DNA of 64,000 bases from contig CBDVAP010000002.1 in NCBI GenBank assembly GCA_965372015.1, forward strand, positions 568 to 64,567, written 5' to 3'. This document shows, piece by piece, positions 12,849 to 63,121 of the stretch. A program made the position numbers and the translations under genes. The notes beneath the pieces were generated by a model, which ran no database searches, had not been told where the DNA came from, and saw nothing but the letters and a program-made list of their open reading frames with translations. Position 1 is the stretch's first letter. Every line of letters begins with the position of its first letter. The stretch is from an uncultured bacterium (GTDB taxonomy: Bacteria; Fidelibacterota; Marinisomatia; SCGC-AAA003-L08; TS1B11).

Positions 12849-13193
12849 TGGTCCCCCGGGCTGTTGATGGGAATAGCGCCCTGTAGTGATATTAATCCAC
12901 CACTGTTCGGGAAAAATCAATCAAAACTCCACACTGCGTTCGAAATTTGCCCGATACCGGCATGAAACCGCGCATATACAGGCCTCTAGGAACATTTGAA
13001 TGTAGCACCGTAACTGGTGTATATTTCAATAGGTTTGATTGCGCTTTGGGGGATATCTGATACTAGCAGGTTTTTAGCGAATGGTTTCGGATGAGCGGCG
13101 CCTCCGGCCGGTGATGCGGCCCATGAAAACGCCGGTCCTAAAACCACAGACTAGTCCCCAGGGGAGGAATGTTATTAAAGGTCGGCACCACCT

Positions 13194-40376: not shown

Positions 40377-40589
40377 TTGGATAGATCGACCTGCTTTGGA
40401 TTCCCAACATAACGGCCGAAACTTACCATGTCCGGCCACCAAGATACAGTCCCATTCGTGGCCATTGCTCGGGCCGTCCATCAGGATCGGGGCGGGAACG
40501 CATTGCTTGTTTATGTACCGGTAGTGCTTGTAACCTAACTGGTGGCCGCAAAGGCGAAGGTATCCCGAAAACAAATACGATGGCCTGAT

Positions 40590-40886
40590 ATGGAAACTCA
40601 CACACCCCAAGAGCCGTCATTGACCCAGCTGCGCACTGAAATCGACCGAATCGATCGCGAGTTGTTCTCTCTGATCGCCCGGCGGATGACGCTGGCCAGA
40701 GTGATCAGAGACCATAAACGAGCCCGGGGATTGCCCATCAGGGACCCGGTGCGGGAGGCTCAGCTCAAAGCGCGCCTGAAGGAATTCGCCACCGGTGTGT
40801 TGGAACCTAGACACGTGGAGGAATTGGCCGCTGTGCTGATCAGAATTTCGCGGGACCTGCAAGCGCCGGCCACCGAAGGTCGATAG
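40590..40886 (+). CDS. AroQ-class chorismate mutase (monofunctional)
   Basis: LTQLRTEIDRIDRELFSLIARRMTLARVIRDHKRARGLPIRDPVREAQ is the typical CM type II helix 1-2 pattern. The Met at 40590 is preferred. Confidence 0.8.
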   Translation: METHTPQEPSLTQLRTEIDRIDRELFSLIARRMTLARVIRDHKRARGLPIRDPVREAQLKARLKEFATGVLEPRHVEELAAVLIRISRDLQAPATEGR

Positions 40887-41257
40887 GGCTGGTCATTTTG
40901 CCCCCTCACTCAAGAGGAGAAATTACCGACTCAAGCAGCTTTAAAAACCGGTTGCCATCCGGTATCACTGATACTAAAATTGCCGCTGAGTGCCAGTTTA
41001 ATACAGCCTTCAAGGAGTAACCATGACCGAAGCACAAACAAGGCCCGTGTAACGTGAGGATGATGGACGTCGGAAGAAATGAAGAACGCCGCAATGCCGA
41101 ATTAAAGGTAGAGGCCGACCGCCGGTTAGAAAATAGCTAGCCCCTTCGTCCGGTTTCAATCCCGATCGAGGATTCGGCCCCTAGCCGGTTGAGTCCTAAA
41201 CCACCCTGTCTAAAAAAAAGATGACTGCGGCTGCAATGCTGCCTAAATTCGGTCGTC

Positions 41258-41320
41258 ATGATTTCAACCCGCTTGGTTCGATTTTACTTTTATTATTGGT
41301 GGCAGCCCCCACAGGGTTAA
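41258..41320 (+). CDS. Candidate leader peptide of the aromatic supraoperon (MISTRLVRFYFYYWWQPPQG)
   Basis: 20 codons, not in the track. Seven consecutive aromatic codons: TTT TAC TTT TAT TAT TGG TGG (41282-41302). It is located 100 nt upstream of trpE. Confidence 0.6.
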   Translation: MISTRLVRFYFYYWWQPPQG

Positions 41321-41369
41321 CCTGGCGCCCGTAACACTAGTAATTGAGACCCAGCGCGAGTGACCCTGT
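41311..41369 (+). promoter_or_regulatory. Candidate antiterminator helix
   Basis: ACAGGGTTA (41311-41319, overlapping the leader stop codon) is complementary to TGACCCTGT (41361-41369), giving 9 bp with one G-U pair. It shares its 3' arm with the terminator. Confidence 0.5.
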
Positions 41370-41392
41370 TCAAAGTGGACGGGGTTTTTTAT
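41363..41392 (+). terminator. Attenuator terminator upstream of trpE
   Basis: ACCCTGT-tcaaagtgg-ACGGGGT followed by TTTTTATTATTA. It ends about 30 nt before the trpE ATG. Confidence 0.6.
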
Positions 41393-41422
41393 TATTACGG
41401 CAACTAAAAGGCCTGAATCTTG

Positions 41423-42886
41423 ATGGACTTCGAACAATTTGCCGCCTTGGCCGGAAAGCATACGGCCGTCCCGGTGTATCGCAAGGTGTTGGCGGACCTG
41501 CTGACACCGGTGTCGGCCTACATGCGCTTAGCCGAGGTCTTCCGGCCCACGGTGTTGTTGGAGTCGGTGGAGGGCGGCCGCCAGTTCACTCGCTATTCGT
41601 ATATTTGCCTTGAGCCCCGCCTGCGCTTGACTCATGCCCATGGTGAGACGTTCCTTGAAGACCAGGCCGGCCGTCACAAAACCGGCGATCCTTTGTTGGT
41701 GGCCATGAAGAAAGTACTGGCGGAATACCAACCCCCCGAGTTGGAGGAAGTGCCCAGCTTTTGCGGCGGTTGGGTGGGTTATTTGGGTTATGAGACGGTA
41801 ACCTGGACAGAGGACATTCCTGTGCACCCGGCCGGGGAAAAGGACATCCCGGACGCCGTTTTCCTGCTGTTCGAAACGGTCATGGCCTTCGACCATCTCA
41901 AACAGGAAATCATAATCTGCCACACGACCCGTATAGACCGGGACCGGCCGCTGGAAGAACAATATAAAGAGGCCCTGGCCGTGGTGGACCGGGTGGGCGA
42001 GAACCTGCACACCGACATCGACTATCAGACCCCCAACAAAACCGCAGCCTCGGAGCTGACCGCCAATATGACCAAAGGACAGTTTATGGCAGCGGTGCAA
42101 CAGGCCCGGGAATATATTTTCGCCGGGGACGTATTCCAGCTGGTGTTGAGCCAGTGTTTCCAGCGGGTTAGCGCAGTGGAACCCCTCACACTCTACCGTG
42201 CCCTGCGCAACATCAACCCGTCACCCTACTTGTTCTGTCTGCAGCTGGAGGATTTCGCTGTAATCGGGGCTTCACCGGAGCTGTTGGTGAAAGTCGAAGA
42301 TAATGAGATGATCATTCGTCCGATTGCCGGCACCCGCCCCCGGGGCAAGAATCGGGTAGAGGACGGCCGGCTGGCAGAGGAACTTCTGGCCGACGAAAAG
42401 GAACGGGCCGAGCACCTGATGCTGGTGGACTTAGGGCGCAATGACGTCGGTCGAGTCAGCCGGCTGGGGTCGGTTGAGGTGCACAGATTCATGACCGTGG
42501 AAAAATATAGCCATGTGATGCATATCGTCAGCGATGTCCGGGGGCAGCTGGAAGCAGATAAGGATATCTTCGACGCCCTGCTCTCCGGTTTCCCGGCGGG
42601 GACCCTCACGGGAGCACCCAAGATTCGGGCCATGGAACTGATCAACGAGCTGGAGCCGGACCGCCGGGGAATCTATTCCGGCGCCTTGGGTTACGCCGAT
42701 TTTCATGGCAACCTGAACACCTGTGTGGTCATCCGGACCCTGCTCCACCAGGATAATGTGATCAGTTTCCAGAGCGGGGCAGGCATTGTGGCCGATTCCG
42801 ACCCCCAAACTGAATACGACGAGTCCATGAGCAAAGCTATGGCTATCATGCGGGCCATCGATTTTGCCGAAAACGGTTTGCAATGA
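41423..42886 (+). CDS. trpE: Anthranilate synthase component I
   Basis: LLESVEGG N-terminal motif; C-terminal chorismate-binding GAPKIRAMELI..LE..RRGIYSGALGY. Confidence 0.95.
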   Translation: MDFEQFAALAGKHTAVPVYRKVLADLLTPVSAYMRLAEVFRPTVLLESVEGGRQFTRYSYICLEPRLRLTHAHGETFLEDQAGRHKTGDPLLVAMKKVLAEYQPPELEEVPSFCGGWVGYLGYETVTWTEDIPVHPAGEKDIPDAVFLLFETVMAFDHLKQEIIICHTTRIDRDRPLEEQYKEALAVVDRVGENLHTDIDYQTPNKTAASELTANMTKGQFMAAVQQAREYIFAGDVFQLVLSQCFQRVSAVEPLTLYRALRNINPSPYLFCLQLEDFAVIGASPELLVKVEDNEMIIRPIAGTRPRGKNRVEDGRLAEELLADEKERAEHLMLVDLGRNDVGRVSRLGSVEVHRFMTVEKYSHVMHIVSDVRGQLEADKDIFDALLSGFPAGTLTGAPKIRAMELINELEPDRRGIYSGALGYADFHGNLNTCVVIRTLLHQDNVISFQSGAGIVADSDPQTEYDESMSKAMAIMRAIDFAENGLQ

Positions 42887-43452
42887 TTCTGGTGCTGGAC
42901 AATTACGACTCGTTCACCTATAACCTGGTGCAGTTTATCGGCCTGATCACGGCGGACATTAAGGTGGTGCGCAATGACTCGCTAACGGTGGAGGAGATCG
43001 CGGTGCTGGCCCCGGAACGGATCGTAATTTCACCTGGCCCCGGCCGCCCGGAGGATGCCGGTATCTCCATCGCCCTGGTGCAGCGCTGGGGAGCGGAAAT
43101 CCCGATCCTGGGCATCTGCCTGGGGCACCAGGCCATCGCGGCGGCTTTTGGCGGGCAAGTCGTTCGGGCGCCGGAAGTGGTGCACGGCAAAGTGTCGACC
43201 ATCAGCCATGACGGCGACCCGATCTTCGCCGGCCTCGACAGTCCCTTCCAGGCCACCCGCTACCACTCACTGGTGGCCGATGAGGCCAGCCTGTCGCCCG
43301 ACCTGCAGGTAACAGCCCGCACGGATAACGGACTCATTATGGGCTTGCGGCACCGCCACTTCCTGCTGGTGGGCCTGCAGTTCCACCCTGAATCGATTAT
43401 GACCGACAATGGACCACGGATGATAGCTAATTTTATCAAGGGGATTAAATGA
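42883..43452 (+). CDS. trpG: Anthranilate synthase component II (glutamine amidotransferase)
   Basis: ILGICLGHQ catalytic Cys, LQFHPES. 4-nt overlap with trpE. Confidence 0.95.
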   Translation: MILVLDNYDSFTYNLVQFIGLITADIKVVRNDSLTVEEIAVLAPERIVISPGPGRPEDAGISIALVQRWGAEIPILGICLGHQAIAAAFGGQVVRAPEVVHGKVSTISHDGDPIFAGLDSPFQATRYHSLVADEASLSPDLQVTARTDNGLIMGLRHRHFLLVGLQFHPESIMTDNGPRMIANFIKGIK

Positions 43453-44447
43453 AGGATATCCTTAATCAATTACTCGGTCACCGGGACCTGTCGATGGATC
43501 AGGCCCGGGAGGCCATGTACCGGATCATGTCCGGTGAATTCAGCGACCTGCAGATCGCCGGTTTTTTAGTCGCGCTGCGGTCTAAAGGGGAGACCTCCTC
43601 CGAGATTGCCGGCTTCGCCCAGGCCATGCGGGAGAAGATGATCAAGGTGCCCATAACCGTAGAGGCCATCGACGTGTGCGGCACCGGCGGCGACGCCAAG
43701 GGTACTTTCAACATATCCACCGCCGCTTCCTTTGTGGTAGCCGGGGGGGGGGTACCGGTGGCCAAACATGGCAACCGTTCCATAACCAGCAAGTCCGGGT
43801 CGGCCGATGTGTTGTCGGCCCTGGGCGTGGACATCACCAAGCCGCCGGAGGAGGTGGCCCGCGCGGTGGACACTATCGGGATCGGGTTCATGTTCGCCCC
43901 CTCCCTGCACCCCGCCATGAAACACGTCATGCCGGCCCGCCAAGCCCTGGCCATCCGCACCGTATTCAATATACTCGGGCCACTGTGCAACCCGGCCGGG
44001 GTCAAGCGGCAGGTGATGGGTATTTTCGATGGCACCCTCACAGATATCCTGGCGAAGGTATTCAAGAAGTTGGGCGCCCAGCAGGCCTACCTGGTGCACG
44101 GCGAGGATGGGCTGGACGAGATTACCACCACCACGGCCACCAAAGTCAGCCACCTGCTGGAAACCGGTGTTATCAAGTCCGGAGTAGTAAGTCCCCGCAG
44201 CCTCGGTCTGTCGCCGGCCAAAATGTCGGACCTGCAAGGCGGCACCCCAAAGGACAATGCCCGGCTGATCCGGGAAATCCTGTCAGGTACGGCCGGACCG
44301 CCACGGGACATCGTAGTACTCAATGCCGCCGCCGGCCTGCTGGTGGGGGGTAAGGTTGCGGACCTACAAACCGGTATCGCTTTGGCCCAGGAGAGTATCG
44401 ACAGCGGGCGGGCCCTCAAGGTGCTGGATAAACTGATTGCCTTCTAA
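43449..44447 (+). CDS. trpD: Anthranilate phosphoribosyltransferase
   Basis: CGTGGDAKGTFNIST, KHGNRSITSKSGSADVL. Confidence 0.95.
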   Translation: MKDILNQLLGHRDLSMDQAREAMYRIMSGEFSDLQIAGFLVALRSKGETSSEIAGFAQAMREKMIKVPITVEAIDVCGTGGDAKGTFNISTAASFVVAGGGVPVAKHGNRSITSKSGSADVLSALGVDITKPPEEVARAVDTIGIGFMFAPSLHPAMKHVMPARQALAIRTVFNILGPLCNPAGVKRQVMGIFDGTLTDILAKVFKKLGAQQAYLVHGEDGLDEITTTTATKVSHLLETGVIKSGVVSPRSLGLSPAKMSDLQGGTPKDNARLIREILSGTAGPPRDIVVLNAAAGLLVGGKVADLQTGIALAQESIDSGRALKVLDKLIAF

Positions 44448-44456
44448 TAACCAAAG

Positions 44457-45248
44457 ATGACGATTCTAGACGAAATAGTAGCCTATAAACGGGAGCAGGT
44501 GCGGGAGCTGTGCCGGCGGCATCCATTACCAATCCCGGCCCAACGCCCGGACCCGGCCCGCGACTTTTCAAGCGCGCTGGCACGTCCCGGCCTACAGGTG
44601 ATCGCCGAGATCAAGCGCCGCTCACCTTCCCGGGGGGCTATCCGCCCGGATATCGATCCAGCCGACCTGGCGCGACAGTACCAGGCCGCCGGGGCCGCCG
44701 CCATATCAGTCTTGACCGACGACAAATATTTCGGCGGCAGCTTGCAACACTTGCAGATGGTCCGGGCCGCCGTGGACCTGCCGGTGCTGCGCAAGGACTT
44801 TATCATCGATCCCTACCAGGTGCATGAATCGGCGGCGGCCGGGGCGGATGCCATTCTGCTGATCGCCGACTGCCTGGATGAAACTGTTTTGGCCGAGCTG
44901 TATGAGCTGGCCGGTTCGGTGGGACTGCAAGTGCTGGTGGAGGGTTACTCGGACCACAGTCTGGCGGCCATCCGCCGGCTGGCTCCCCAGGTCGCCGGGA
45001 TCAACTCCCGCGATTTGGCTACTATGCAGGTGAATCTGGCGGGAATGCTTGAACGCCGTTCGCTATTGCCGGAGCAGGCAATCCAGGTGGCCGAATCGGG
45101 AATCGCCTCCACTGATGACCTGCGAGCTGTTGCCTCAGCAGGCTTCGATGCCGCCTTAATCGGGACGACCCTGTTGCTTACGGGTGACCCCGGTGCTAAC
45201 CTGAGAGCCCTGTTGGCCGGAAGGCCTCTTCCTGAGGAGGCGGTATGA
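44457..45248 (+). CDS. trpC: Indole-3-glycerol-phosphate synthase
   Basis: VIAEIKRRSPSRG, ISVLTDDKYFGGS, LRKDFIIDPYQ. Confidence 0.95.
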   Translation: MTILDEIVAYKREQVRELCRRHPLPIPAQRPDPARDFSSALARPGLQVIAEIKRRSPSRGAIRPDIDPADLARQYQAAGAAAISVLTDDKYFGGSLQHLQMVRAAVDLPVLRKDFIIDPYQVHESAAAGADAILLIADCLDETVLAELYELAGSVGLQVLVEGYSDHSLAAIRRLAPQVAGINSRDLATMQVNLAGMLERRSLLPEQAIQVAESGIASTDDLRAVASAGFDAALIGTTLLLTGDPGANLRALLAGRPLPEEAV

Positions 45249-45880
45249 TCCCGGTCAAGATTTGCGGTCTCACCAACACCGAGGATGCGCAGTTGGCGGT
45301 GCGGCTGGGAGCGGCCGCCGTCGGGATGATCTTCTTTGAGGCCAGTCCCCGTTGTGTCGCCCCCGCCCAAGCCCGAGCGATCACCGCCGGGTTGGATAGC
45401 GCCGTGACTAAGGTGGGGATATTCGTCAACGAGCCGCCGGAGCAGGTCAACGCCGTGGTATCTGCGGTGGGATTGGACCTGGTACAGCTCAGCGGTGACG
45501 AGTCGCCGGAGGACTGTACTCGCATTACCGTTCCGGTGATCAAGACCCTGCATGTTGGCCAAGATTTTGATGCTGCGTTGGCCTCCGGTTACGATGTCCG
45601 GGCGCTGCTGCTGGACACTCACCGGCGCGGTAGCTACGGCGGCACCGGCCAGTCTTTCGATTGGCAGGCCATTGATCGCGGCGCCCTCCACCGACCGGTG
45701 GTTCTCTCCGGCGGGCTGCACGCCGGTAATATCCTGGAGGGGATCGCAACACTGGCCCCGGACGCGGTTGACCTTGGCAGCGGCGTGGAAGCGGCGCCCG
45801 GCCGGAAAGACCCGGAAAAATTGGCGGCCCTGTTCGCCGCCTTGAAAAGTACTCGAGCCACCGATGCCGTCCTCTTCTAA
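45245..45880 (+). CDS. trpF: Phosphoribosylanthranilate isomerase
   Basis: [27 protein letters not shown]. Confidence 0.9.
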
Positions 45881-47078
45881 GCCACAGCGCTACTCGCAGC
45901 CCGACGACCACGGTCACTTCGGGGTCTACGGCGGCCAGTACGTCCCCGAAACATTGTTGCCGGCCCTGAAGGAACTGGAGGCCGCCTACCGCGCAGCCGG
46001 CCAGGATCAATCTTACTGGAAAGAGCTTAACCAGCTGGCGTCCCACTATGCCGGTCGCCCCACACCGCTGTATCATGCTCGCCGGATCAGTGCCCAGCTG
46101 GGTGTGGAGGTCTACCTCAAGCGGGAGGACTTAAACCACACCGGCGCCCATAAAATCAATAACGCCCTGGGGCAGGTATTGCTGGCCCGGCGGATGGGCA
46201 AGAGCCGAATCATCGCCGAGACCGGTGCCGGCCAGCATGGGGTGGCCACCGCCACCGTGTCCGCCCTGTTCGGCCTGGAGTGTGTGGTATATATGGGCGA
46301 GGAAGACATGCGGCGCCAGGCGTTGAACGTCTTCCGCATGGAGTTGCTGGGAGCCCAGGTCCGACCGGTGGGGTCCGGCAGCCGTACGCTGAAGGACGCC
46401 GTTAACGAGGCCATCCGTGATTGGGTAGCCACCGTGGAGCATACTCACTACCTGATCGGCTCGGTGGTGGGCCCTCACCCCTATCCCCTGCTGGTGCGCG
46501 ATTTCCAGGCGGTGATCGGGCGGGAGGCCCGGGAGCAATATTCAAAGCAGGTGGGCGGCGTACCCGACCTGTTGCTGGCTTGCGTAGGCGGCGGTAGCAA
46601 TGCCATCGGCCTATTTCACCCCTTTCTTGATACTGACGTCCGGATGGTAGGTGTTGAGGCCGCCGGTCACGGCCTGGACTCCGGTGAGCATGCCGCCACT
46701 TTGACTAGGGGCACACCGGGAGTGCTGCACGGCTCGGCCGGTTACCTGCTGCAGACCGGCGACGGCCAGGTACGCCTGCCCCATTCCATCAGCGCCGGAC
46801 TGGATTATCCCGGCGTGGGGCCTGAGCACAGCCTGCTCAAGGACCTGGGACAGGTGGAATACCTCACCGCCACCGATGAGGAAGCACTAGCGGCCTTTGG
46901 GTGGCTATCGGAACTCGAGGGAATTATCCCGGCCCTGGAGGTAGCCCACGCCCTGGCGCTGCTCCAGCAAAACCGGCTAGGACTGACGGACGGCAGCAAG
47001 GTCGTGGTTTGCCTGTCAGGACGAGGCGACAAGGACGTACAGACCGTGGCCCGGGCACTGGGCAGGGAATTGCCATGA
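45864..47078 (+). CDS. trpB: Tryptophan synthase beta chain
   Basis: [15 protein letters not shown] (PLP Lys), GGGSNAIG. Confidence 0.95.
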
Positions 47079-47848
47079 GGCGTATTCCCCAGGTGATGGC
47101 CGCCCCCGGCAAGAAACTGGTGCCGTTCATCACCGCCGGCTACCCGCAGCTGGAGAGTACCGTCCCCCTGGTGCTGGCCGCGGAGCGGGCCGGAGCTCAG
47201 CTGGTGGAGTTGGGCATGCCCTTTTCGGACCCGCTGGCCGATGGCCCGGTGATCCAGCAGAGCAGCCAGACCGCCCTGGAAAACGGAGTAACCGTCCCGT
47301 GGATATTGAAGACCGTGGCGCTCATTCGGGAGCAATCGCAGGTCCCCATTATCTTGATGGGGTATATCAACCCCATCCGACGGATGGGGGCGGTAAATTT
47401 CCTGCATCAGGCTGCCGGGGCCGGCGTGGATGGATTGATCATCCCCGACCTGCCGCCGGAAGAGGACCCGGGATTCTTTGAGCAGGCCCGGGCAGCGGGG
47501 CTCAGCACTATCTTCCTGGTGGCCCCCAATACCAGCAACGAGCGGATAGTCCACCTGGGGCGGGAAGCCCGGGATCTGCTTTACGCCATTTCCATCATGG
47601 GCGTCACCGGTACGGCCTTGAGCGCCCGACGACAGCTCACAGACTATTTAAAGCGCGTCCGGCTCAACGCGCATGTGCCGTTTGTAGTGGGCTTTGGGAT
47701 CGCCACAGCGCAGGATGTGCGCCGGGTAGGCAGCCTGGCCGATGGGGTGGTGGTGGGCAGCGCCCTGTTGAAGCGCCTAGCCCGGGCCACCGATCCGCCG
47801 GCCGAGGCCTATAATTATCTGCAATCACTGGCGGCCGCACTGCCATAG
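47075..47848 (+). CDS. trpA: Tryptophan synthase alpha chain
   Basis: The ATG at 47075 overlaps the trpB TGA (ATGA). [24 protein letters not shown]. The track ORF from 46901 is an upstream out-of-context extension. Confidence 0.9.
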
Positions 47849-47868: not shown

Positions 47869-48444
47869 ATGATGGCCAAAAAGAGCATGAAAATCGGCGT
47901 CCAGGGAGCCGAGGGGAGTTTCTGTGAGGAAGCGACCCTCGATTTCTGCCAGCGGCATAGTATCGGTAACTACCGGATGGACTACCTGATAACCTCCGCA
48001 AAAGTCATGGACGCTGTTGAACAGGGAACGGTTCAATTGGGTATTATGGCCATGGAGAATGCTCAGGGTGGAGTGGTTATCGAGAGCATGTACGCCCTGG
48101 CCAGCTACAGTTGCGAAATAGTGGAGATGTTCCATATCCAGGTGGAACAGTGTCTTTTGGGCCGGCCCGGTCTAACCATCGGGGACATCACTCAGATCCA
48201 TTCCCACCCGCAGGCTTTGCGCCAATGCCGCAACTACCTGGCGGACCACTTCTGGACCCGGCCCTTGATCGATGAGGAGGACACCGCCGTGGCTGCCAAG
48301 CGGCTGGCCGATGGTGAATTGCCCACTACTGCGGCAGTGGTGGGCAGCCGGCTGTGTGCGGAGCTATATCATCTGGTGGTCCTGACTGAGGGGATTCAAG
48401 ACTTAAAAAATAATCTGACTTTGTTTTTGGGAGTCAAAAAATGA
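47869..48444 (+). CDS. pheA: Prephenate dehydratase, catalytic (PDT) domain only
   Basis: 191 aa. IGVQGAEGSFCEEA, ENAQGGVV, HSHPQALRQC, TAAV.S..CAELY, TLFL. The next gene starts 4 nt before its stop, so there is no room for an ACT domain. Confidence 0.8.
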   Translation: MMAKKSMKIGVQGAEGSFCEEATLDFCQRHSIGNYRMDYLITSAKVMDAVEQGTVQLGIMAMENAQGGVVIESMYALASYSCEIVEMFHIQVEQCLLGRPGLTIGDITQIHSHPQALRQCRNYLADHFWTRPLIDEEDTAVAAKRLADGELPTTAAVVGSRLCAELYHLVVLTEGIQDLKNNLTLFLGVKK

Positions 48445-49196
48445 CCACGGAAAAACCGGCCCCTCTGGTGGGCATCGTCGGTTTTGGCCGCTTCGGCCCG
48501 GTGCTCGCTCGCATGCTGACCCCGGTCCACCAGGTGCTGGTATACGATATTGCCGATGTCAGCCAGCGGGCTAGTGCCGCGGGAGCCCGGGCGGTATCGT
48601 GGCAGGAGATTACCACCGCTGAAACCCTCTTCCTGGCAGTGCCTATCCGGCACTTCAAAGAGGCGGCGGCTCGCTTGAATGAGACCGTGCGACCGGGCAC
48701 CACCGTGATCGATGTCTGTTCGGTCAAAGTCTACCCCGCCACGGTGATGCGGGAACATTTCGCTCCGGAGATCACTACCATCGCCACCCACCCACTATTC
48801 GGCCCTGACTCCTGTCAGGAAGGCTTCTCTGGATTGAAACTGATGATGGCCCCGGTTTCCCCCCGGAACGAAATCTTCACCTATTGGGAACACCATTTCA
48901 AGGGGCTAAAGATCGAAACTCTGGTCATGACACCGGAAGAGCACGACCGGCTGGCCGCTAACAGCCAGGGAATTACCCATTTCCTGGGCCGGGTGCTGGA
49001 GCAATTCGGGATTACCCCCACAGCCATCGACACCGAGGGTTTCGTGGACTTGCAGGCGGTGGTGGAACAAACCTGCCACGATACCTTGGAGCTGTTCCAG
49101 GACCTGCAGAACTTCAACCCCTACACCATGGGTATGGTGGATGGTCTTTTAGCTGCGGTGGAGCAGGTGAAACAGAAAGTTCAACGGAGAGATTAA
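48441..49196 (+). CDS. tyrA: Prephenate (or arogenate) dehydrogenase
   Basis: GIVGFGRFG Rossmann motif, DVCSVK, HPLFGP; 251 aa with no ACT domain. Confidence 0.8.
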   Translation: MTTEKPAPLVGIVGFGRFGPVLARMLTPVHQVLVYDIADVSQRASAAGARAVSWQEITTAETLFLAVPIRHFKEAAARLNETVRPGTTVIDVCSVKVYPATVMREHFAPEITTIATHPLFGPDSCQEGFSGLKLMMAPVSPRNEIFTYWEHHFKGLKIETLVMTPEEHDRLAANSQGITHFLGRVLEQFGITPTAIDTEGFVDLQAVVEQTCHDTLELFQDLQNFNPYTMGMVDGLLAAVEQVKQKVQRRD

Positions 49197-50243
49197 ATGT
49201 TGGTAATAATGGATGCCCGTGCTACGGAGGCAGAGATCACCCGCGTCCAGGAGCGAATCAAGGAGCTGGGATATCAACCCCATCCCATTCCGGGGGCCAA
49301 TCAGCTGGCCATCGGCGTAACCGGCAACCAGGGTACCGAGGATCGCATTTACTTAGAAGGTCTGCCCGGTGTCCTGCAGGTTATACGGGTCACCAAACCC
49401 TATAAGCTGGCCAGCCGTGATACCAAGCCGGAAAGCACGGTAGTGGACGTACGCGGCGTGAAATTTGGGGCGGGCAACATCGTGATGATAGCCGGCCCCT
49501 GCGCGGTGGAGAGCCGGGAACAGACCCTGCGGATCGCCCAGCTGGTGGCGGACAGGGGCGCTTTAATGCTGCGAGGTGGCGCCTACAAACCCCGCACTTC
49601 GCCCTATGCTTTCCAGGGAATGGGCGAGAAGGGGCTGCAAATTCTGGCCGAAGCGCGCGAGAAAACCGGCTTGCCAGTGGTAACCGAGGTCGTGGATCCC
49701 GCCACTGCCTCGTTGGTGGCCCAGTATGCCGACATGCTCCAGATCGGTACCCGCAACATGCAAAACTTTACGCTTCTAAAAGAAGTTGGTAAATTGGGGT
49801 TGCCGGTATTAATGAAAAGGGGAATGAGCGCCAATCTGGATGAAACTCTGATGTCGGTTGAGTACCTGATGTCCAACGGCACCAACGAGGTGGTGGTGTG
49901 CGAACGGGGTGTGCGCACTTTTGGCAGCCACGCTCGTAATACCCTGGATGTGAGCATAATCCCGGCCTTCAAGAAAGTTAGCCATCTACCGATCATTGTG
50001 GACCCCAGCCACGCCGGCGGCCACAAATACGCTGTGCTACCGCTGGCCCTGGCCGGGGTGGGCGCCGGCGCCGACGGGTTGCTGGTGGATGTCCACGACG
50101 ATCCCGACCATGCGCTGGTGGATGGGCCCCAGGCGCTACTGCCGGCCGATTTCGAGGAGCTCATGGCGGTGCTGGGACGTATAGCTGAGGCCCTCGGAAA
50201 ATCGCTGGGAGCACCGCTGGCCGTTGCCGGTGAGAGCGCCTGA
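49197..50243 (+). CDS. 3-deoxy-7-phosphoheptulonate (DAHP) synthase, type I-beta, with an N-terminal ferredoxin/ACT-like domain
   Basis: GPCAVES, YKPRTSPYAFQG, DPSH. About 75 N-terminal residues (MLVIMDARATEAEITRVQERIKELGY...) precede the barrel, as in Thermotoga-type enzymes. Confidence 0.9.
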   Translation: MLVIMDARATEAEITRVQERIKELGYQPHPIPGANQLAIGVTGNQGTEDRIYLEGLPGVLQVIRVTKPYKLASRDTKPESTVVDVRGVKFGAGNIVMIAGPCAVESREQTLRIAQLVADRGALMLRGGAYKPRTSPYAFQGMGEKGLQILAEAREKTGLPVVTEVVDPATASLVAQYADMLQIGTRNMQNFTLLKEVGKLGLPVLMKRGMSANLDETLMSVEYLMSNGTNEVVVCERGVRTFGSHARNTLDVSIIPAFKKVSHLPIIVDPSHAGGHKYAVLPLALAGVGAGADGLLVDVHDDPDHALVDGPQALLPADFEELMAVLGRIAEALGKSLGAPLAVAGESA

Positions 50244-50247
50244 CCTG

Positions 50248-51492
50248 ATGAAAATTTCCATTCCCGGCGACAAGTCTATCTCGCACCGCGCCCTGATGCT
50301 GGCGGCCATAGCCGATGGCGTCACCGAACTGCGTAACCTGCCGCAAGGTGCGGATGTCACCAGCACCCGCAACTGCCTGGGCCAATGCGGCATCGAGTTT
50401 ACCGATAAAAAAGGTGTGGTTCTGGTCCAGGGCCGTGGTGGCTCTTTTTCTGGGCCGTCTCATGATCTTGACGCCGGTAATTCCGGCACTACCGCCCGGC
50501 TATTGATGGGATTGCTGGTAGGCCGGGGAATTCAGGCTCGCTTGGTAGGTGACGTTTCCTTGTCACGCCGTCCTATGGCCCGGGTGGTGGAGCCGTTGCG
50601 GCAGCTGGGCGCACACATGGAAATTGCCGCCCGTAAGACCCTGCCGGTAGTTATCAGACCTTCCCAGCTGGGATCACTCAATTATATTCTACCGGTAGCC
50701 AGTGCCCAGGTCAAATCTGCCCTACTGTTAGCGGGGCTGGTAAGTGAGGGAGTCGTCCGGGTAACCGAGCCGGTCGCCACCCGCAACCATACCGAACTGA
50801 TGCTGGCGGACCTGGGCGTCGATATCAAAGTTGCCGGCAATGAAATCACCATCGGAACTGGCGTTCAGGTAATCAACGGTTTTGACCTGGACATACCTGG
50901 CGATCCATCTTCGGCCGCGTTCCCGGCCGCCCTGGCTACCCTGGTACCCGAAAAGGACGTCACTTTCCCCGGCTTGCTGCTCAATCCTACCAGACTGGGA
51001 TTCTTTCGGGCCTTGAAGCGCATGGGGGCCCAGGTGGAGTGGACCGTCGAAAAACGAGTACTGGGGGAGGAAGTGGGCCACCTCAGGGTAAGATCTTCCA
51101 CCCTTAACGGTATCAAAATCCGGGGTGATGAAATACCCACCCTGATCGACGAAATTCCCATCCTGGCAATCCTGGCCTGTAACGCCCGGGGCGAGACAGT
51201 GGTCCGGGATGCCGATGAATTGCGGCTCAAGGAATGTGACCGGATCAAGGCGATCGTGGAGAACCTGCGTCGGATGGGGGCGCGGATACAGGAACTGTCC
51301 GATGGGTTCCGGATCCTGGGATCCTCCCGGCTGCGGGGCGCCACCATCAGTACTCATTCCGATCATCGCATTGCCATGGCCTTCACCGTGGCCGGGAAAA
51401 TCACCCGGGAGAAAACCACCATCGACGACCCGGATTGCGTGGAAATCTCTTTCCCGGGCTATCATAAACTCATCAGCCGATTGAAAGCATGA
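50248..51492 (+). CDS. aroA: 3-phosphoshikimate 1-carboxyvinyltransferase (EPSP synthase)
   Basis: PGDKSISHRALMLAA, LDAGNSGTTARLL, DHRIAMAF. Confidence 0.95.
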   Translation: MKISIPGDKSISHRALMLAAIADGVTELRNLPQGADVTSTRNCLGQCGIEFTDKKGVVLVQGRGGSFSGPSHDLDAGNSGTTARLLMGLLVGRGIQARLVGDVSLSRRPMARVVEPLRQLGAHMEIAARKTLPVVIRPSQLGSLNYILPVASAQVKSALLLAGLVSEGVVRVTEPVATRNHTELMLADLGVDIKVAGNEITIGTGVQVINGFDLDIPGDPSSAAFPAALATLVPEKDVTFPGLLLNPTRLGFFRALKRMGAQVEWTVEKRVLGEEVGHLRVRSSTLNGIKIRGDEIPTLIDEIPILAILACNARGETVVRDADELRLKECDRIKAIVENLRRMGARIQELSDGFRILGSSRLRGATISTHSDHRIAMAFTVAGKITREKTTIDDPDCVEISFPGYHKLISRLKA

Positions 51493-52400
51493 AAACCCTG
51501 GCGGTAATTGGTTTCCCCCTGAAGCACACCCTCAGCCCGCTGCTGCACAATCACCTGTTTGGCCTGCTGGGGATCGACGCCCGCTACCAGGCGCTGGAGA
51601 CCCCGCCGGCGGATCTGGCGCAGGTGGCGAATCGGTTGCGTGGCGGCGATTTGGACGGTCTTAACATCACCCGCCCACACAAGATTGCCTTTCGCGAGTA
51701 CCTGGACCGGGTGGCCCCTGATGCCGCCATCGCTGGGGCGGTGAATTGTGTTTGTGTCGACCGAGTGGGGCTGCACGGCCATAACACCGACCTGGCCGGG
51801 ATCACGCATGCCTTCGATGTAGCCGGCCACGATTGCTCGGGTCAGCAAGTCCTGTTGCTGGGGGCCGGCGGAGCTGCCCGGGCAGCTGTAGTAGCCTTGC
51901 AGAGACTTGGTGTGGCCGGGATAACAGTAGCTGCCCGGCGTTTAACCGCCGCAGACGAGCTTATAGCCGCCCTGCCAGCCAAACAGCGCCCCGCCAATTT
52001 CCGGGCAATAAAATTGACTCCCGACCTGGACTCACGCCCATTCGGGCTGCTGGTGAATGCCACACCGGTGGGCCAGTGGCCGCGGGTGGATGAAGTCCCG
52101 CCGGGCGCCGGGCAATTGCACCCACAGCAGGCGGTGTTTGATATGGTCTATCATCCTGATGATACCCAGCTTCTGCAGCGGGCCCGCTCGCTGGGGTGCC
52201 GGGTGATATCCGGCCTGGACATGTTCGTGGGCCAGGCCCTGGCCTCCCTGGAACTGTGGTTTCCCGGCAGCACCGGTTTTGGCAGCGGCTCACTACAGCC
52301 AGGCATCGATCCGGCCGCCCTGAGGGAATTATTGCGCATAGGCAGCTTGGAATCCACTAACCGGACGCCGACGGTCGAAACGCCTGAGGCCTCGGTATGA
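51489..52400 (+). CDS. aroE: Shikimate dehydrogenase
   Basis: SPLLHN, LNITRPHK, LLGAGGAARA. Confidence 0.9.
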   Translation: MKTLAVIGFPLKHTLSPLLHNHLFGLLGIDARYQALETPPADLAQVANRLRGGDLDGLNITRPHKIAFREYLDRVAPDAAIAGAVNCVCVDRVGLHGHNTDLAGITHAFDVAGHDCSGQQVLLLGAGGAARAAVVALQRLGVAGITVAARRLTAADELIAALPAKQRPANFRAIKLTPDLDSRPFGLLVNATPVGQWPRVDEVPPGAGQLHPQQAVFDMVYHPDDTQLLQRARSLGCRVISGLDMFVGQALASLELWFPGSTGFGSGSLQPGIDPAALRELLRIGSLESTNRTPTVETPEASV

Positions 52401-53560
52401 TGCGCCGGCTACGGTGGCTCACGGCGGGGGAATCCCACGGCCAGGCCCTGATTGGAATTCTCGAGGGTCTGCCCGCCGGCCTGGAAATCGACAATGAATA
52501 TATCGCCGCGCAACTGGTCCGTCGACAGCTGGGTCACGGGCGTGGCCGGCGCATGAAAATCGAGCAGGACCGGGCAGAGATTATCTCTGGTGTGCGCCAC
52601 GGTCTGACACTGGGCTCTCCCATCGCCCTGATGATACCCAATAACGACTGGGAAAACTGGCGTGGGCGCATGTCGGTTGAGCCACCAAAGAAAGAGATCC
52701 AGCCGGTAACCTTACCCCGTCCGGGACATGCCGACCTGGCCGGTGTGAAAAAGTTTGGCTTCGGCGATATCCGCAACGTCCTGGAGCGGGCCAGCGCTCG
52801 GGAAACAGCCATGCGGGTGGCTCTGGGTTCTATGGCCCGCCGGCTGCTCGCTGAGGTGGGCATGGAAGTGGGCAGCCGGGTGGTGGCGATCCATACGGCC
52901 CGGGACGAGCAGCCCTGGCCCGGCGAGCAGTCTCCCGATGCAGTCAACGCCCGGGCTGACCAGTCTCCGGTCCGTTGCCTGGATGGTAAAGCGGCGAAAC
53001 AGATGATGGCGGCCATTGATAAAGCCCGCCAGGCGGGCGACAGCGTTGGGGGCCTGTTCGAGGTGGTGGCCACCGGGTTGCCTTACGGGCTGGGCAATTA
53101 CATCCAATGGGACTTGAAATTGCGTTCGCGTTTGACCGAGGCGGTCATGTCGATCAACGCCATCCAGGGGCTGGAAGTAGGCCTGGGATTCGCCGGTAGC
53201 CGGCAGTTGGGCAGCCAATTCCATGATGAAATATTGCCCGGCAGCTCAGGCCGCGTGCAGCGTCCCACCAATAACGCCGGGGGCCTGGAAGCCGGTATGA
53301 GCAATGCTCAGCCGGTGGTACTCAGGGCGGTGATGAAGCCCATTCCTACCCTGGTCAAACCTTTGCGCTCTGTAGATATTGCCACTGGCAAAGTGGGCCT
53401 GGCCCACCAGGAACGCACTGACTCCTGCGCGGTGCCGGCCGCCTCGGTGGTGGCCGAGAGCATGGTCTGCCTGGTGTTGGCCGATGCCTTACTCGAGAAA
53501 TTCGGCGGCGATAGCCTGGCGCAGTTACGGGCGCACATGGAATCCTCCGCTAAATATTAA
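52397..53560 (+). CDS. aroC: Chorismate synthase
   Basis: TAGESHGQAL, RPGHADL, SARETAMRVA, GGLEAGMSN. Confidence 0.95.
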   Translation: MMRRLRWLTAGESHGQALIGILEGLPAGLEIDNEYIAAQLVRRQLGHGRGRRMKIEQDRAEIISGVRHGLTLGSPIALMIPNNDWENWRGRMSVEPPKKEIQPVTLPRPGHADLAGVKKFGFGDIRNVLERASARETAMRVALGSMARRLLAEVGMEVGSRVVAIHTARDEQPWPGEQSPDAVNARADQSPVRCLDGKAAKQMMAAIDKARQAGDSVGGLFEVVATGLPYGLGNYIQWDLKLRSRLTEAVMSINAIQGLEVGLGFAGSRQLGSQFHDEILPGSSGRVQRPTNNAGGLEAGMSNAQPVVLRAVMKPIPTLVKPLRSVDIATGKVGLAHQERTDSCAVPAASVVAESMVCLVLADALLEKFGGDSLAQLRAHMESSAKY

Positions 53561-53571
53561 GGTCGACATCG

Positions 53572-54114
53572 ATGTTCAAGGACGGGCCGGCGAATATCTG
53601 CCTGGTAGGCCTCATGGGCAGCGGTAAATCTACGGTGGCCCCTCTGCTGGCCGGCCGCTTGGGCCGGGAGCACATCGACCTGGATAAAGAGATCGCCCTG
53701 CGGCTGGGGCGCACTATTATGATGATCTTCGCCGACCCGGGGGAGGAATCTTTCCGGCGGGAGGAGCAAGTGGTTTTGCAGCACTATTGCAGCCGGGATG
53801 GCCTGGTTATCGATTGTGGCGGTGGGATAGTATTAGCCGCCGATAATCGGCCCTGCCTGAGGGACAACTTCACCGTCTACCTTCAAACCACTCCGGAGAC
53901 CCTGGCGCTCCGGGTGGGCTCAGCCACTGGGCGGCCTCTGCTTCAGGGAGCTGAGCCGATCCAGGATCGACTGGCAGCCTTGCTGTCCGAAAGAGAACCT
54001 TTCTACCGGGAATGCGCCGCTTTGACCGTCACCACTGATGACCGTACCCCTATCGAGATAGCCGGCGAGATCATTGCCCACCTGCCCGCCAGTCTGAAAC
54101 CGGCTGCTCTATGA
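53572..54114 (+). CDS. aroK: Shikimate kinase
   Basis: P-loop GLMGSGKSTV, FRREE, GGG. Confidence 0.9.
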   Translation: MFKDGPANICLVGLMGSGKSTVAPLLAGRLGREHIDLDKEIALRLGRTIMMIFADPGEESFRREEQVVLQHYCSRDGLVIDCGGGIVLAADNRPCLRDNFTVYLQTTPETLALRVGSATGRPLLQGAEPIQDRLAALLSEREPFYRECAALTVTTDDRTPIEIAGEIIAHLPASLKPAAL

Positions 54115-55205
54115 CCACCATCACCGTCGATCTGGGGGCTCGTAGCTACCCGCTGCATATCGGCGCCGGGCTGCTCAGCTCGCTGAGTGAGTTGCTGACC
54201 CCGCTGGGGGTGGCCGGCCGGATCGGGCTGGTTAGCAGCGCCCCAATTCACGACCATTATGGCGCCGCGGTTATCGCCACGTTGGAAGCTGCCGGTAACC
54301 AAGTCATTACCACCTTGATTCCTGACGGTGAACAGGCCAAGAATCTTGAAACCGTCGCCCGGCTTTACGACACTTTCCTGGAGGCCGGCCTGGACCGCTC
54401 CTCCACTTTGGTGGCCTTGGGAGGCGGCGTCGTGGGTGATCTGACCGGTTACGTGGCGGCCACCCTTTTCCGGAGCATCGGCCTGGTGCAGATCCCCACC
54501 ACCCTGCTGGCTATGGTGGACTCCTCCATCGGTGGCAAGACCGGTGTCAATCACCCTCTGGGGAAAAACCTGATTGGGGCCTTCCACCAACCGTTGGCGG
54601 TGATCATCGATCCCGCGGTGCTGGGCACCCTGCCAAAGCGGGAGTTGACTTCAGCCTTCGCGGAGCTGTTGAAGGCTGGGGCTATTGCAGAGCTTCCCTT
54701 CTTCCGATTCCTGGTGGCTAACGCCCGGGTTATCCTGGATCTAGCCGATGCTGACCTGGTACTGCAAGCCATTGCCAAAGCTTGCCGCATCAAGGCCGAT
54801 GTGGTATCTGCCGACGAGCGCGAGGGCGACCGCCGCCGGATTCTCAACTTCGGGCATACCTTTGGCCACGCCCTGGAGGCCACTTTGGGTTACGGGGTAA
54901 TCCGACATGGCGAGGCGGTGGCAATGGGGATGGCGGGCGCCGGTTACCTCAGCCGGCAACTGACCGGCCTGAGTGAGCATGACTATCAGGAATTGCTGGC
55001 CTCCCTGGAACCGCTGGACCTGCCGAAACTGCCGCCCCTGGATCGGGAAGCGATGCTGAAATACCTGTACCACGACAAGAAAGTGAGGCGTGGGAAGCTG
55101 CATTTCGTATTGCTGGAGGCGCTGGGACGGCCGGTGATCACCAGCACGGTCGATGACACTCTCATATCGGCGGCCCTGGACGAAATCGAACGGAGGTTTG
55201 GATGA
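54111..55205 (+). CDS. aroB: 3-dehydroquinate synthase
   Basis: GGGVVGDLTGY, DSSIGGKTGVN, FGHTFGHALE. Confidence 0.95.
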   Translation: MTTITVDLGARSYPLHIGAGLLSSLSELLTPLGVAGRIGLVSSAPIHDHYGAAVIATLEAAGNQVITTLIPDGEQAKNLETVARLYDTFLEAGLDRSSTLVALGGGVVGDLTGYVAATLFRSIGLVQIPTTLLAMVDSSIGGKTGVNHPLGKNLIGAFHQPLAVIIDPAVLGTLPKRELTSAFAELLKAGAIAELPFFRFLVANARVILDLADADLVLQAIAKACRIKADVVSADEREGDRRRILNFGHTFGHALEATLGYGVIRHGEAVAMGMAGAGYLSRQLTGLSEHDYQELLASLEPLDLPKLPPLDREAMLKYLYHDKKVRRGKLHFVLLEALGRPVITSTVDDTLISAALDEIERRFG

Positions 55206-55636
55206 TCTTTCTGGTTATCAACGGCCCTAACCTGAACCTTTTGGGTAAGCGCGAGCCGGAACTGTACGGCAGCGAGACCCTGGCCGACATTCAGGTCTGG
55301 TTGCAGTTCCAGGTGGAAACTAAGGGGGATAAACTCCAGTTTTTTCAGAGCAACCACGAAGGTGCCATTATCGACTACCTGCACGGCGAGATCGGTGTGG
55401 CTGACGGGGCGGTGATCAATCCCGGCGCCCTGACACATTACAGTTATGCCCTGCGGGATGCCATCGCCGCCGTGGACTTCCCGGTGGTGGAAGTGCACCT
55501 CACGGACATCCATAGCCGGGAGGAATTTCGACGCCATTCGGTCACCACGGAGGTGTGTATCGAGCAGATTTCAGGTCAAGGGAAAAAGGGATACCTGGAG
55601 GCTATCGAGCTGCTGCGTAAGCATAAGGCGGGCTAG
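55202..55636 (+). CDS. aroQ: Type II 3-dehydroquinate dehydratase
   Basis: INGPNLNLLGKREPELYG, SNHEGAIID, INPGALTHYS. Confidence 0.95.
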   Translation: MIFLVINGPNLNLLGKREPELYGSETLADIQVWLQFQVETKGDKLQFFQSNHEGAIIDYLHGEIGVADGAVINPGALTHYSYALRDAIAAVDFPVVEVHLTDIHSREEFRRHSVTTEVCIEQISGQGKKGYLEAIELLRKHKAG

Positions 55637-57015: not shown

Positions 57016-57376
57016 TGGTGGAGGCGGGGGGAGTCGAACCCCCGTCCGAAAAGGCGACCTGAGCTGCTTCTACGTGCGTAGTCTGTTGCTGAGTCTCACC
57101 GCCCGGGCGCCGGCAGACAAACTACCGGGCGGCCAGCCCGCAAAGTCTTATCCCGTACCTGCGGGCAATGTACGGGACCAGTCCACTAATATGACGCCGG
57201 CACCTGGGGAAATGGACACTCCTCAGGGCGACGAGCTGCCTAACTGTTAAGCGGCAGCCAGATAACCGTAGTTATCGGCATTTGTGTTGAATTGCCCGGA
57301 TGATTCACGAGGTAACCAGACATCCTCGGCACGCCACGGCTCTCATCGTCCAATCCGTCGAAGCCGTTTCGCCCCC
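57016..57376 (-). ncRNA. ssrA: tmRNA (SsrA)
   Basis: 5' GGGGGCGAAACGGCTTCGACGG and 3' GGACGGGGGTTCGACTCCCCCCGCCTCCACCA form an acceptor stem with a G3-U pair. Tag reading frame GCC GAT AAC TAC GGT TAT CTG GCT GCC GCT TAA (ADNYGYLAAA) at 57247-57279. Confidence 0.9.
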
Positions 57377-62941: not shown

Positions 62942-63014
62942 GCGCCATTAGCTCAAATGGTAGAGCAGCGGACTCTTAATCCGAAGGTTGAAGGTTCGAT
63001 TCCTTCATGGCGCA
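62942..63014 (+). tRNA. tRNA-Lys (anticodon CUU)
   Basis: Hand-folded cloverleaf: acceptor gcgccat/atggcgc, anticodon loop cuCUUaa, T-loop ttcgatt, discriminator a. Confidence 0.85.
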
Positions 63015-63048: not shown

Positions 63049-63121
63049 GACACGGTAGCTCAGTCGGTAGAGCAGCGGCCTTTTAAGCCGTTGGTCGTGG
63101 GTTCGATTCCCACCCGTGTCA
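63049..63121 (+). tRNA. tRNA-Lys (anticodon UUU)
   Basis: Acceptor gacacgg/ccgtgtc, anticodon loop cuUUUaa, T-arm gtggg-ttcgatt-cccac. Confidence 0.85.

Follow-up and report, generated by a model that had tools for sequence, protein, structure and literature searches.

The stretch of DNA analyzed herein (the window) comprises 64,000 nucleotides (nt) from an uncultured bacterium of the Fidelibacterota (assembly GCA_965372015.1, contig CBDVAP010000002.1, forward-strand positions 568 to 64,567), and all coordinates without a locus name are counted from its first letter. Between a gene for an AroQ-class chorismate mutase and trpE, the first gene of a long aromatic amino acid operon, lies a 20-codon open reading frame (ORF) containing seven consecutive Phe, Tyr and Trp codons, followed by an intrinsic terminator, and we describe this locus as a probable leader-peptide transcription attenuator. 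Its elements are as follows.

41258..41320, +: leader peptide ORF, 20 codons plus TAA (ATG at 41258, TAA at 41318-41320), encoding MISTRLVRFYFYYWWQPPQG
41282..41302, +: regulatory codons 9-15, TTT TAC TTT TAT TAT TGG TGG (Phe Tyr Phe Tyr Tyr Trp Trp)
41267..41308, +: segment 1, leader-coding strand, pairing with 41314-41361 in minimum free energy (MFE) folds when the ribosome is absent; putative anti-antiterminator
41311..41319, +: segment 2, predicted antiterminator 5' arm, ACAGGGTTA, overlapping the leader TAA; nine pairs with 41361-41369
41361..41369, +: segment 3, shared strand, TGACCCTGT, serving as antiterminator 3' arm and terminator 5' arm
41325..41357, +: inner helix P_b, GCGC 41325-28 with GCGC 41354-57, plus loop; stacks under the antiterminator
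41362..41397, +: intrinsic terminator, 11-bp hairpin 41362-41386 with a 3-nt loop, T6 at 41385-41390, then ATTATTA

The genes flanking these elements, assigned by NCBIfam (for the trp genes above the curated cut-offs), are listed below.

40542..40886, +: AroQ-class chorismate mutase, upstream of the attenuator
41423..47848, +: trpE, trpG, trpD, trpC, trpF, trpB, trpA (tryptophan branch)
47869..49196, +: prephenate dehydratase (191 aa) and prephenate dehydrogenase TyrA
49197..55636, +: DAHP synthase, aroA, aroE, aroC, aroK, aroB, aroQ (seven common-pathway, or shikimate, steps)

The operon behind the leader thus consists of 16 genes that cover the Trp, Phe and Tyr branches together with all seven shikimate steps, its first gene beginning 102 nt after the end of the leader ORF. 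Since the trp genes either overlap or lie within 9 nt of each other, gaps in the whole operon do not exceed 20 nt, and the next downstream ORF is on the opposite strand, the operon likely forms a single 14-kb transcription unit. The chorismate mutase gene, which probably begins at the ATG near 40590, precedes the attenuator and would thus escape its control. The gene order chorismate mutase-leader-trpE is common to the window and the related loci L161, L162, L163, L167 and L177. The closest TrpE proteins (up to 93% identity) were found in metagenome-assembled genomes (MAGs) labelled Candidatus Marinimicrobia, Neomarinimicrobiota or Fidelibacterota, which places the window in this phylum (SAR406).

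In all six frames of the window, the seven-codon run of the leader was the sole run of six or more aromatic codons. When the 64-kb window was shuffled 200 times block-wise with its composition preserved, a run of seven was reached in 0/200 shuffles, the longest shuffled run being six codons (3/200). The only other run of at least five codons, a run of five at 7312, lies off-frame within a gene encoding 956 aa and was set aside as chance.

An independent terminator scan identified the hairpin 41362-41386 as the only terminator-like site within 40500-41700. Its arms include ACCCTGT (41363-69) and ACGGGGT (41379-85), its energy when folded alone was -14.3 kcal/mol, and 33 nt separate the T-run from the trpE ATG at 41423. 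The segments ACAGGGTTA (41311-19) and TGACCCTGT (41361-69) form nine pairs, one of them G-U, and the resulting antiterminator hairpin (41311-41369), made up of this 9-bp outer helix and the inner GCGC/GCGC helix, was calculated at -21.6 kcal/mol; the inner helix is compatible with the terminator state too. MFE folding of 41250-41400 gave a z of -2.2.

The effect of ribosome position was then modelled by masking a footprint from -18 to +12 relative to the first A-site nucleotide at each codon in turn and folding the transcript to the terminator loop. With the A-site on codons 2-14, and thus on every aromatic codon before the last Trp, 9/9 antiterminator pairs were predicted to form; the number was 7/9 on codon 15 (the last Trp), four on codon 16 and zero from codon 17 to the stop. 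The productive stalling zone hence ends exactly at the end of the aromatic run. In the fold without a ribosome the antiterminator was absent, and segment 1 paired with 41314-41361, which would leave segment 3 free so that the terminator forms. Such default termination without translation is classical "superattenuation". The segment 1 pairing was predicted in the window and L161 and partly in L162, but nowhere else in the clade; of all elements of the attenuator model it is the least secure.

The preliminary description of this DNA, which drew on its letters only, fared well in these analyses. The ORF 41258-41320, its peptide and the aromatic codons 9-15 were reproduced base for base, the terminator arms, the T-run and the spacing of about 30 nt to trpE were all found as described, and so was the complementarity of 41361-69 to 41311-19 across the leader stop codon. 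Its proposal that a ribosome at the stop codon permits termination and one stalled at the aromatic codons permits antitermination was reproduced in silico by the constrained folding. As for its caveat that a ribosome on the second Trp codon may cover part of the antiterminator arm, partial cover was indeed predicted, but it was minor.

Taken in sequence, these elements suggest the following mechanism. As RNA polymerase transcribes the leader, a ribosome would follow on the 20-codon ORF. When charged Phe-, Tyr- and Trp-tRNAs are all available, translation would proceed to the TAA, where the ribosome would cover ACAGGGTTA, whereupon TGACCCTGT would pair with 41376-86 as the terminator and transcription would stop at the U-tract before trpE. 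Scarcity of even one of these charged tRNAs would instead stall the ribosome in codons 9-15, allowing 41311-19 to pair with 41361-69; this antiterminator, extended by the inner GCGC/GCGC helix, would block the terminator and let the polymerase read trpE through aroQ. If no ribosome is present, the leader-coding strand would pair with 41314-41361, making termination the default in this genome.

For comparison with other genomes, contig collections (genomes, metagenomes) were scanned with TrpE, which returned relatives of at most 50% identity, dominated by the generic TrpE pattern; this set served the wider survey, and the close relatives were located one by one from their TrpE proteins. Each close relative examined (L161-L167, L170 and L177; TrpE 65-93% identical) has a short ORF immediately before trpE, as listed below with the TrpE identity to the window.

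L161, 93%: leader MISTRLSLFYFYYWWQPPQG
L162, 79%: leader MITHSRIRFYFYYWWWQP
L164, 71%: leader MATDNQLAYYYYWFMRTG
L165, 70%: leader MVTDSRQYFYYYWFMRTG
L163, 70%: leader MIAVRKHNYFYVWFTGAG
L167, 68%: leader MNSFVPTFFYYWWFRSTG
L177, 68%: leader MVISPISNYHYLWFIGAG
L166, 66%: leader MLLMCVYYYQWFTGTG
L170, 65%: leader MAANGYTNYYHWFWGAG

Over the broader range of TrpE identity of 58-93%, the relatives, mostly Marinimicrobia MAGs, retain the Phe/Tyr/Trp ORF, the stop codon in the antiterminator arm, the terminator and the supraoperon. The clade leaders show nine cores (..FYFYYWW.., ..FYFYYWWW.., ..YFYVWF.., ..YYYYWF.., ..YFYYYWF.., ..YYYQWF.., ..FFYYWWF.., ..YYHWFW.. and ..YHYLWF..), and all 10 contain at least one Phe, at least two Tyr and at least one Trp. 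Aromatic content alone is conserved in the peptides; their N- and C-terminal residues are not. Between the window, L161 and L162 the aromatic codons differ by synonymous changes only (TTT/TTC, TAT/TAC), apart from an in-frame extra TGG in L162. In an alignment of the 10 sequences (the window and its nine clade relatives; A1), the indels in the ORF part were 6, 9 or 12 nt long, all multiples of three. The overlapping ORF 41221-41334, translation of which had been named as an observation that would speak against the leader, was rejected as the translated frame, since it is broken in L162 by a stop preceding the aromatic region and is not conserved. As a separate observation, in L163 (CP070787.1, a complete Fidelibacterota genome) the operon ends at a truncated trpC (156 aa, 13033-13500) followed by unrelated genes, so that the supraoperon there appears disrupted behind a leader and a terminator that are both intact.

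At the RNA level, GGGTT(G/A)A and the terminator were nearly invariant in A1, GGGTT being present in 10/10 sequences, and in each of the nine relatives the leader stop codon lies within or next to GGGTTGA/GGGTTAA. The terminator was 100% paired in 10/10 sequences, versus 27-62% when the partner strand was slid by 1-3 columns, and showed one compensatory double change from G-C to A-U. The antiterminator together with the inner helix was 86% paired, versus 25-45% with a slid partner strand; its closing pair (columns 62/106) is A-U in the window and L161 but G-C in the remaining eight sequences, and the inner helix P_b was 90% paired. RNAalifold applied to A1 independently recovered the terminator and the inner helix, and masked folding placed the switch boundary at or just past the aromatic run in 15 relatives.

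Mixed aromatic leaders with different helix sequences were also found in distant Marinimicrobia (L172, ..NNYWFWWRY..; L173, ..KYFWWY..; L001/L081, ..FYSWFWFYF..) and in MAGs labelled Cytophagia or unclassified (L003, ..NYWYYWYWY..; L004; L007, ..YFWRFWFWYWYYF..). In all 12 of the 12 loci tested, the 30 nt past the last aromatic codon hold a segment complementary to the terminator 5' arm, with duplex energies of -11.7 to -18.3 kcal/mol and individual shuffle p values from <0.0005 to 0.06, and masked folding of the distant lineages gave the same position-dependent switch. This layout, kept despite changed helix sequences, is the strongest comparative support for the predicted alternative helices. 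The conservation of the ORF, the aromatic run and the helices, which the preliminary description had singled out as a check, thus extends to nine clade relatives and, with different helix sequences, to at least four further lineages.

These comparisons bear directly on the possibility that the hairpin merely terminates a transcript of the upstream chorismate mutase gene or small ORF, the aromatic ORF being fortuitous or non-regulatory. The hairpin is the sole terminator-like site between the chorismate mutase gene and trpE, and a ribosome-binding site is not visible before the leader ATG, as such an explanation would have it; nevertheless, the seven-codon run was never attained by shuffling, the ORF, its aromatic content and the arm complementarity recur in loci without chorismate mutase upstream (L164, L165, L166 and L170), the same features accompany unrelated helix sequences in other lineages, and the ORF indels respect the reading frame. 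We thus consider this explanation highly improbable.

The pattern of peptide conservation likewise bears on whether the peptide acts by itself, either through nascent-chain arrest in the manner of TnaC or as a functional small aromatic peptide, possibly in trans like peTrpL, rather than as a sensor of tRNA charging. The C-terminal end of the window peptide, WWQPPQG, includes a Pro-Pro motif, and trans functions of trp leader peptides have been documented in Sinorhizobium (PMC7298713). The motif is, however, limited to the window and L161, on which ground Pro-Pro arrest was rejected, and what is kept among the terminally divergent peptides is the aromatic composition and the nucleotides of the antiterminator arm. 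TnaC-type logic is induction by the free amino acid, which has the wrong sign for a biosynthetic operon. Of the explanations considered, this one appears to us the least credible.

The locus combines a short ORF, codons for the end products, an intrinsic terminator and conservation of these features with, in silico, a mutually exclusive antiterminator that depends on ribosome position, and we conclude with considerable confidence that it is a functional ribosome-mediated (leader-peptide) transcription attenuator. The proposed mechanism is classical multivalent attenuation; on the evidence above, the leader ORF is presumably translated, the hairpin presumably terminates transcription, and Phe, Tyr and Trp are probably each sensed.

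As to which amino acids are read, the content of the downstream operons is informative. Operon content was determined by tblastn with the 16 proteins of the window and from gene calls of individual relatives. Mixed leaders at 11 distinct loci (the window, L001, L081, L003, L004, L165, L166, L167, L170, L172 and L173) precede operons running from trpA into prephenate dehydratase, tyrA, DAHP synthase or aro genes. In contrast, leaders of the type ..LNNWWWWNL.GR..RR at nine loci (L011, L018, L029, L091, L096, L099, L100, L128 and L148; Syntrophales, Smithella, Aminicenantes-like) precede trpEGDCFBA only, most of them with about 10 kb of downstream sequence. The latter belong to a well-conserved Trp-only leader family, ..L(N/S)LNNWWWWNL(T/S/K)GR(L/I)(I/V/F)RR, found before trpEGDCFBA in contigs of Syntrophales, Smithella and Aminicenantes type (L011, L018, L029, L030, L091, L096, L098-L100, L103, L104, L128 and L148). 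The earlier suggestion that the mixed run suits an operon making chorismate, Trp and the Phe and Tyr branch enzymes agrees with both the gene content and the clade-wide presence of Phe, Tyr and Trp.

An attenuator in which only one amino acid is sensed, most likely Trp, or Phe as in the AroR leader, with the other aromatic codons as passengers, was weighed against this evidence. The AroR leader of Corynebacterium glutamicum (Phe-Tyr-Phe), upstream of aroF (Neshat et al., 2014), is reported to respond to Phe and not to Tyr (summarized in PMC11802643). Furthermore, a ribosome on the last Trp codon is closest to the switch point, and the locus L115 has a Tyr/Trp-rich leader on a trp-only operon. 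On the other hand, all 10 clade leaders keep Phe, Tyr and Trp though the rest of the peptide diverges, stalls on the Phe and Tyr codons were predicted to free the antiterminator fully and thus better than a stall on the last Trp codon, and trp-only operons elsewhere have pure WWWW leaders. We therefore regard a single input as unlikely, and integration of all three aromatic amino acids by the attenuator as the reading moderately favored by the evidence.

Several observations weigh against a three-input attenuator and temper these conclusions. The reported deafness of AroR to Tyr means that the presence of a codon does not prove that its amino acid is sensed. The mixed Tyr/Trp leader of L115 (3719-3811; ..FQGYYYWYWC.., MEMTTTFQGYYYWYWC...) is accompanied by a terminator and an operon that ends at trpA, in which trpD was not matched by tblastn; leader composition thus predicts operon content imperfectly. 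Since essentially one lineage makes up the WWWW comparison set and its events are not independent, the contrast in operon content between mixed and WWWW leaders is suggestive and not a statistical proof. The helices of the close clade are mostly invariant, with little true covariation (a single double change in each helix). Folding of the full-length RNA always gave the terminator state as the energy minimum, and the antiterminator must therefore win kinetically, as a kinetic trap; the E. coli trp antiterminator likewise acts in this way. Finally, no Shine-Dalgarno (SD) sequence was found before the leader ATG. A strict SD core was present in only 12 of 36 crude gene proxies of the window, and the low use of SD sequences means that its lack before the leader says little on translation; it was thus set aside as evidence against translation of the leader.

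The region upstream of the leader may offer other routes to translation. The elements GATGAC and CTAA(A/G)TTCG are invariant in the window, L161 and L162 amid diverging flanks, and comprise the following candidate in the window.

41221..41251, +: candidate promoter, -35-like ATGACT (41221-26), 17-nt spacer, TAAATT/TAAATTCG (41244-51); weak, 8/12 consensus matches

With only 8/12 matches it was absent from the promoter-scan list. With an end just 6-8 nt upstream of the leader ATG, the candidate could yield an mRNA with little or no untranslated 5' sequence, and its conservation suggests a promoter that would give such a (near-)leaderless leader mRNA in the window, L161 and L162. A precedent for leaderless leader-peptide mRNAs exists in Deinococcus deserti (PMC4007540).

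Just upstream of the aromatic leader, the clade carries a conserved Arg-rich ORF, 60-66 aa long, in which seven (D/E/G)RR pairs are spaced out (the DRR-repeat ORF; consensus MxxxRxGxDRRxxxGRRxxxDRRxxxxPVxxxRRSGxDRRxxxDRRIGxDRRxxxxF), as follows.

L163, 9655-9840: DRR ORF
L164, 5697-5885: DRR ORF
L165, 9648-9836: DRR ORF
L166, 9650-9838: DRR ORF
L167, 9670-9870: DRR ORF
L170, 1958-2140: DRR ORF
L177, 4093-4278: DRR ORF
L161, 6304-6453: DRR ORF
Window, 41023..41140, +: decayed DRR-ORF remnant, with a premature stop and, compared with L161, a change of frame

Decay of this ORF has left 28 aa in the window, 21 aa in L162 and 49 aa in L161; elsewhere in the clade (seven members) its stop lies 1-7 nt before the leader ATG or overlaps it, which suggests that their leaders may be translated by termination-reinitiation coupling. 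The DRR ORF draws on all six Arg codons, an indication of selection on the protein or on its translation. A Pfam search of the DRR ORF gave no family, a search of the window for further DRR-repeat ORFs found none, and its 53 database relatives are all "hypothetical" and mostly on short contigs, with one named near match, to Neomarinimicrobiota. The best sigma-70-like promoter match of the region (TTGCCA-17-TAAAAT, 40952-40980, 10/12), situated between the chorismate mutase gene and the DRR-ORF remnant and conserved in L161, may be the ancestral promoter of a DRR-ORF-leader-trpE unit. A member of the DRR-repeat family also occurs away from any trp operon, in L178 (6377-6562), where its stop overlaps the next start (TAAAATG) of a gene for an unknown 111-aa protein, with a ZnuA/ABC-3 metal-uptake cluster behind it; perhaps, therefore, the DRR ORF serves generally as an upstream coupling ORF in the phylum and is not specific to trp. 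It is conceivable, if doubtful, that the two ORFs form one device in which the DRR ORF hands ribosomes to the leader by termination-reinitiation, the window being a derived state with a decayed DRR ORF and a near-leaderless mRNA from the adjacent promoter. If so, a second input, for instance the general state of translation or the charging of Arg-tRNA, could come from the DRR ORF, or this ORF could instead encode an Arg-rich RNA-binding peptide acting on the leader RNA.

The encoded enzymes offer a further point on regulation. The prephenate dehydratase (47869-48444) matches only positions 2-183 of the 284 of its profile and is without the ACT (Phe-binding) regulatory domain, which is likewise lacking in its orthologues in relatives (PF00800 only). 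In the absence of this feedback domain, transcriptional control of the Phe branch would be useful. Orthologues of the DAHP synthase (49197-50243) carry an N-terminal ferredoxin-like FXD regulatory domain (PF18152). Feedback on the Phe branch may rely on the attenuator and DAHP synthase instead of PheA allostery, and the ACT-less dehydratase suggests that transcriptional control partly took over from allosteric control. Elsewhere in the window, the only Rfam matches at gathering level were a tmRNA (57016-57376, minus strand, 191.5 bits) and two tRNA genes.

62942-63014, +: tRNA gene (Rfam gathering level)
63049-63121, +: tRNA gene (Rfam gathering level)

If the proposed three-input attenuator is correct, it would provide the clearest example to date of a leader peptide that reads Phe, Tyr and Trp together, a single leader gating the entire pathway (the seven steps of the shikimate pathway, the seven of the Trp branch, and the enzymes of the Phe and Tyr branches). 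Multivalent attenuation would then reach beyond the branched-chain amino acids and threonine to the aromatic family, and to an uncultured, globally abundant marine phylum (SAR406) with almost nothing known on gene regulation. The match of leader composition to operon content across lineages would provide a natural experiment on how attenuator inputs evolve upon operon fusion, the motif would permit regulatory annotation of Marinimicrobia MAGs, and in synthetic biology the leader could be used as a compact sensor with three inputs. The three-way aromatic input, the governing of a whole-pathway operon and the spread through an uncultured phylum look undescribed; a full-text literature search found no Phe, Tyr and Trp leader on a trp-aro supraoperon, and since key reviews were outside its reach a prior description is possible.

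With regard to known RNA families, an Rfam search of 40600-41700 up to E = 10 returned only three unrelated matches far below thresholds, no gathering-level match was obtained at this region of the window or in seven related loci, and none of the covariance models Trp_leader, Phe_leader, Bacteroid-trp (RF01692) and T-box matched at or near its gathering score. The architecture nevertheless resembles that of trpL (Yanofsky) and pheL of E. coli and Salmonella, which have a short leader ORF with end-product codons and a stop beside the antiterminator 5' strand. Like trpL, the window has overlapping antiterminator and terminator helices followed by a U-tract directly upstream of trpE, and a predicted 1:2-type helix giving default termination without translation. 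Unlike trpL with its two Trp codons or pheL with its seven Phe codons, the leader has seven regulatory codons for three amino acids, precedes 16 genes, among them those of the common pathway and of the Phe and Tyr branches, and belongs to the phylum Marinimicrobia. Candidate attenuators outside Proteobacteria include the Bacteroid-trp motif upstream of trp (RF01692; Weinberg et al., 2010, PMC2864571) and the Acholeplasma aroF upstream ORF (uORF) motif uORFC-13-1 (PMC8632094), both of which have been described as single-amino-acid sensors, unlike the Phe/Tyr/Trp leader of the window.

AroR of C. glutamicum shares with the window leader its mixed aromatic codons and ribosome-mediated attenuation, there of a DAHP synthase operon (PMC11802643). 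AroR has three aromatic codons without Trp, and the C. glutamicum trp operon has a separate Trp leader, whereas in the window one leader with Phe, Tyr and Trp codons precedes the trp, phe, tyr and aro genes together. The aro-trp supraoperon of Bacillus subtilis likewise embeds the trp genes and places the trp part under a leader terminator/antiterminator switch (PMC1173090). The proposed sensor in the window is a translated ORF, in contrast to the TRAP protein of B. subtilis, which binds (G/U)AG repeats, and the gene order also differs, the window having trp first, then phe/tyr and then aro. Multivalent attenuation is known for the ilvGMEDA and thr leaders, and the enterobacterial ilvGMEDA (Leu/Val/Ile) and thrL (Thr/Ile) leaders, like that of the window, mix codons for several end products of a branched pathway. 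The analogy to the mixed Ile/Val/Leu leader of ilvGMEDA drawn in the preliminary description is thus apt, while the amino acid set and the pathway differ and the window operon also holds the entire common trunk.

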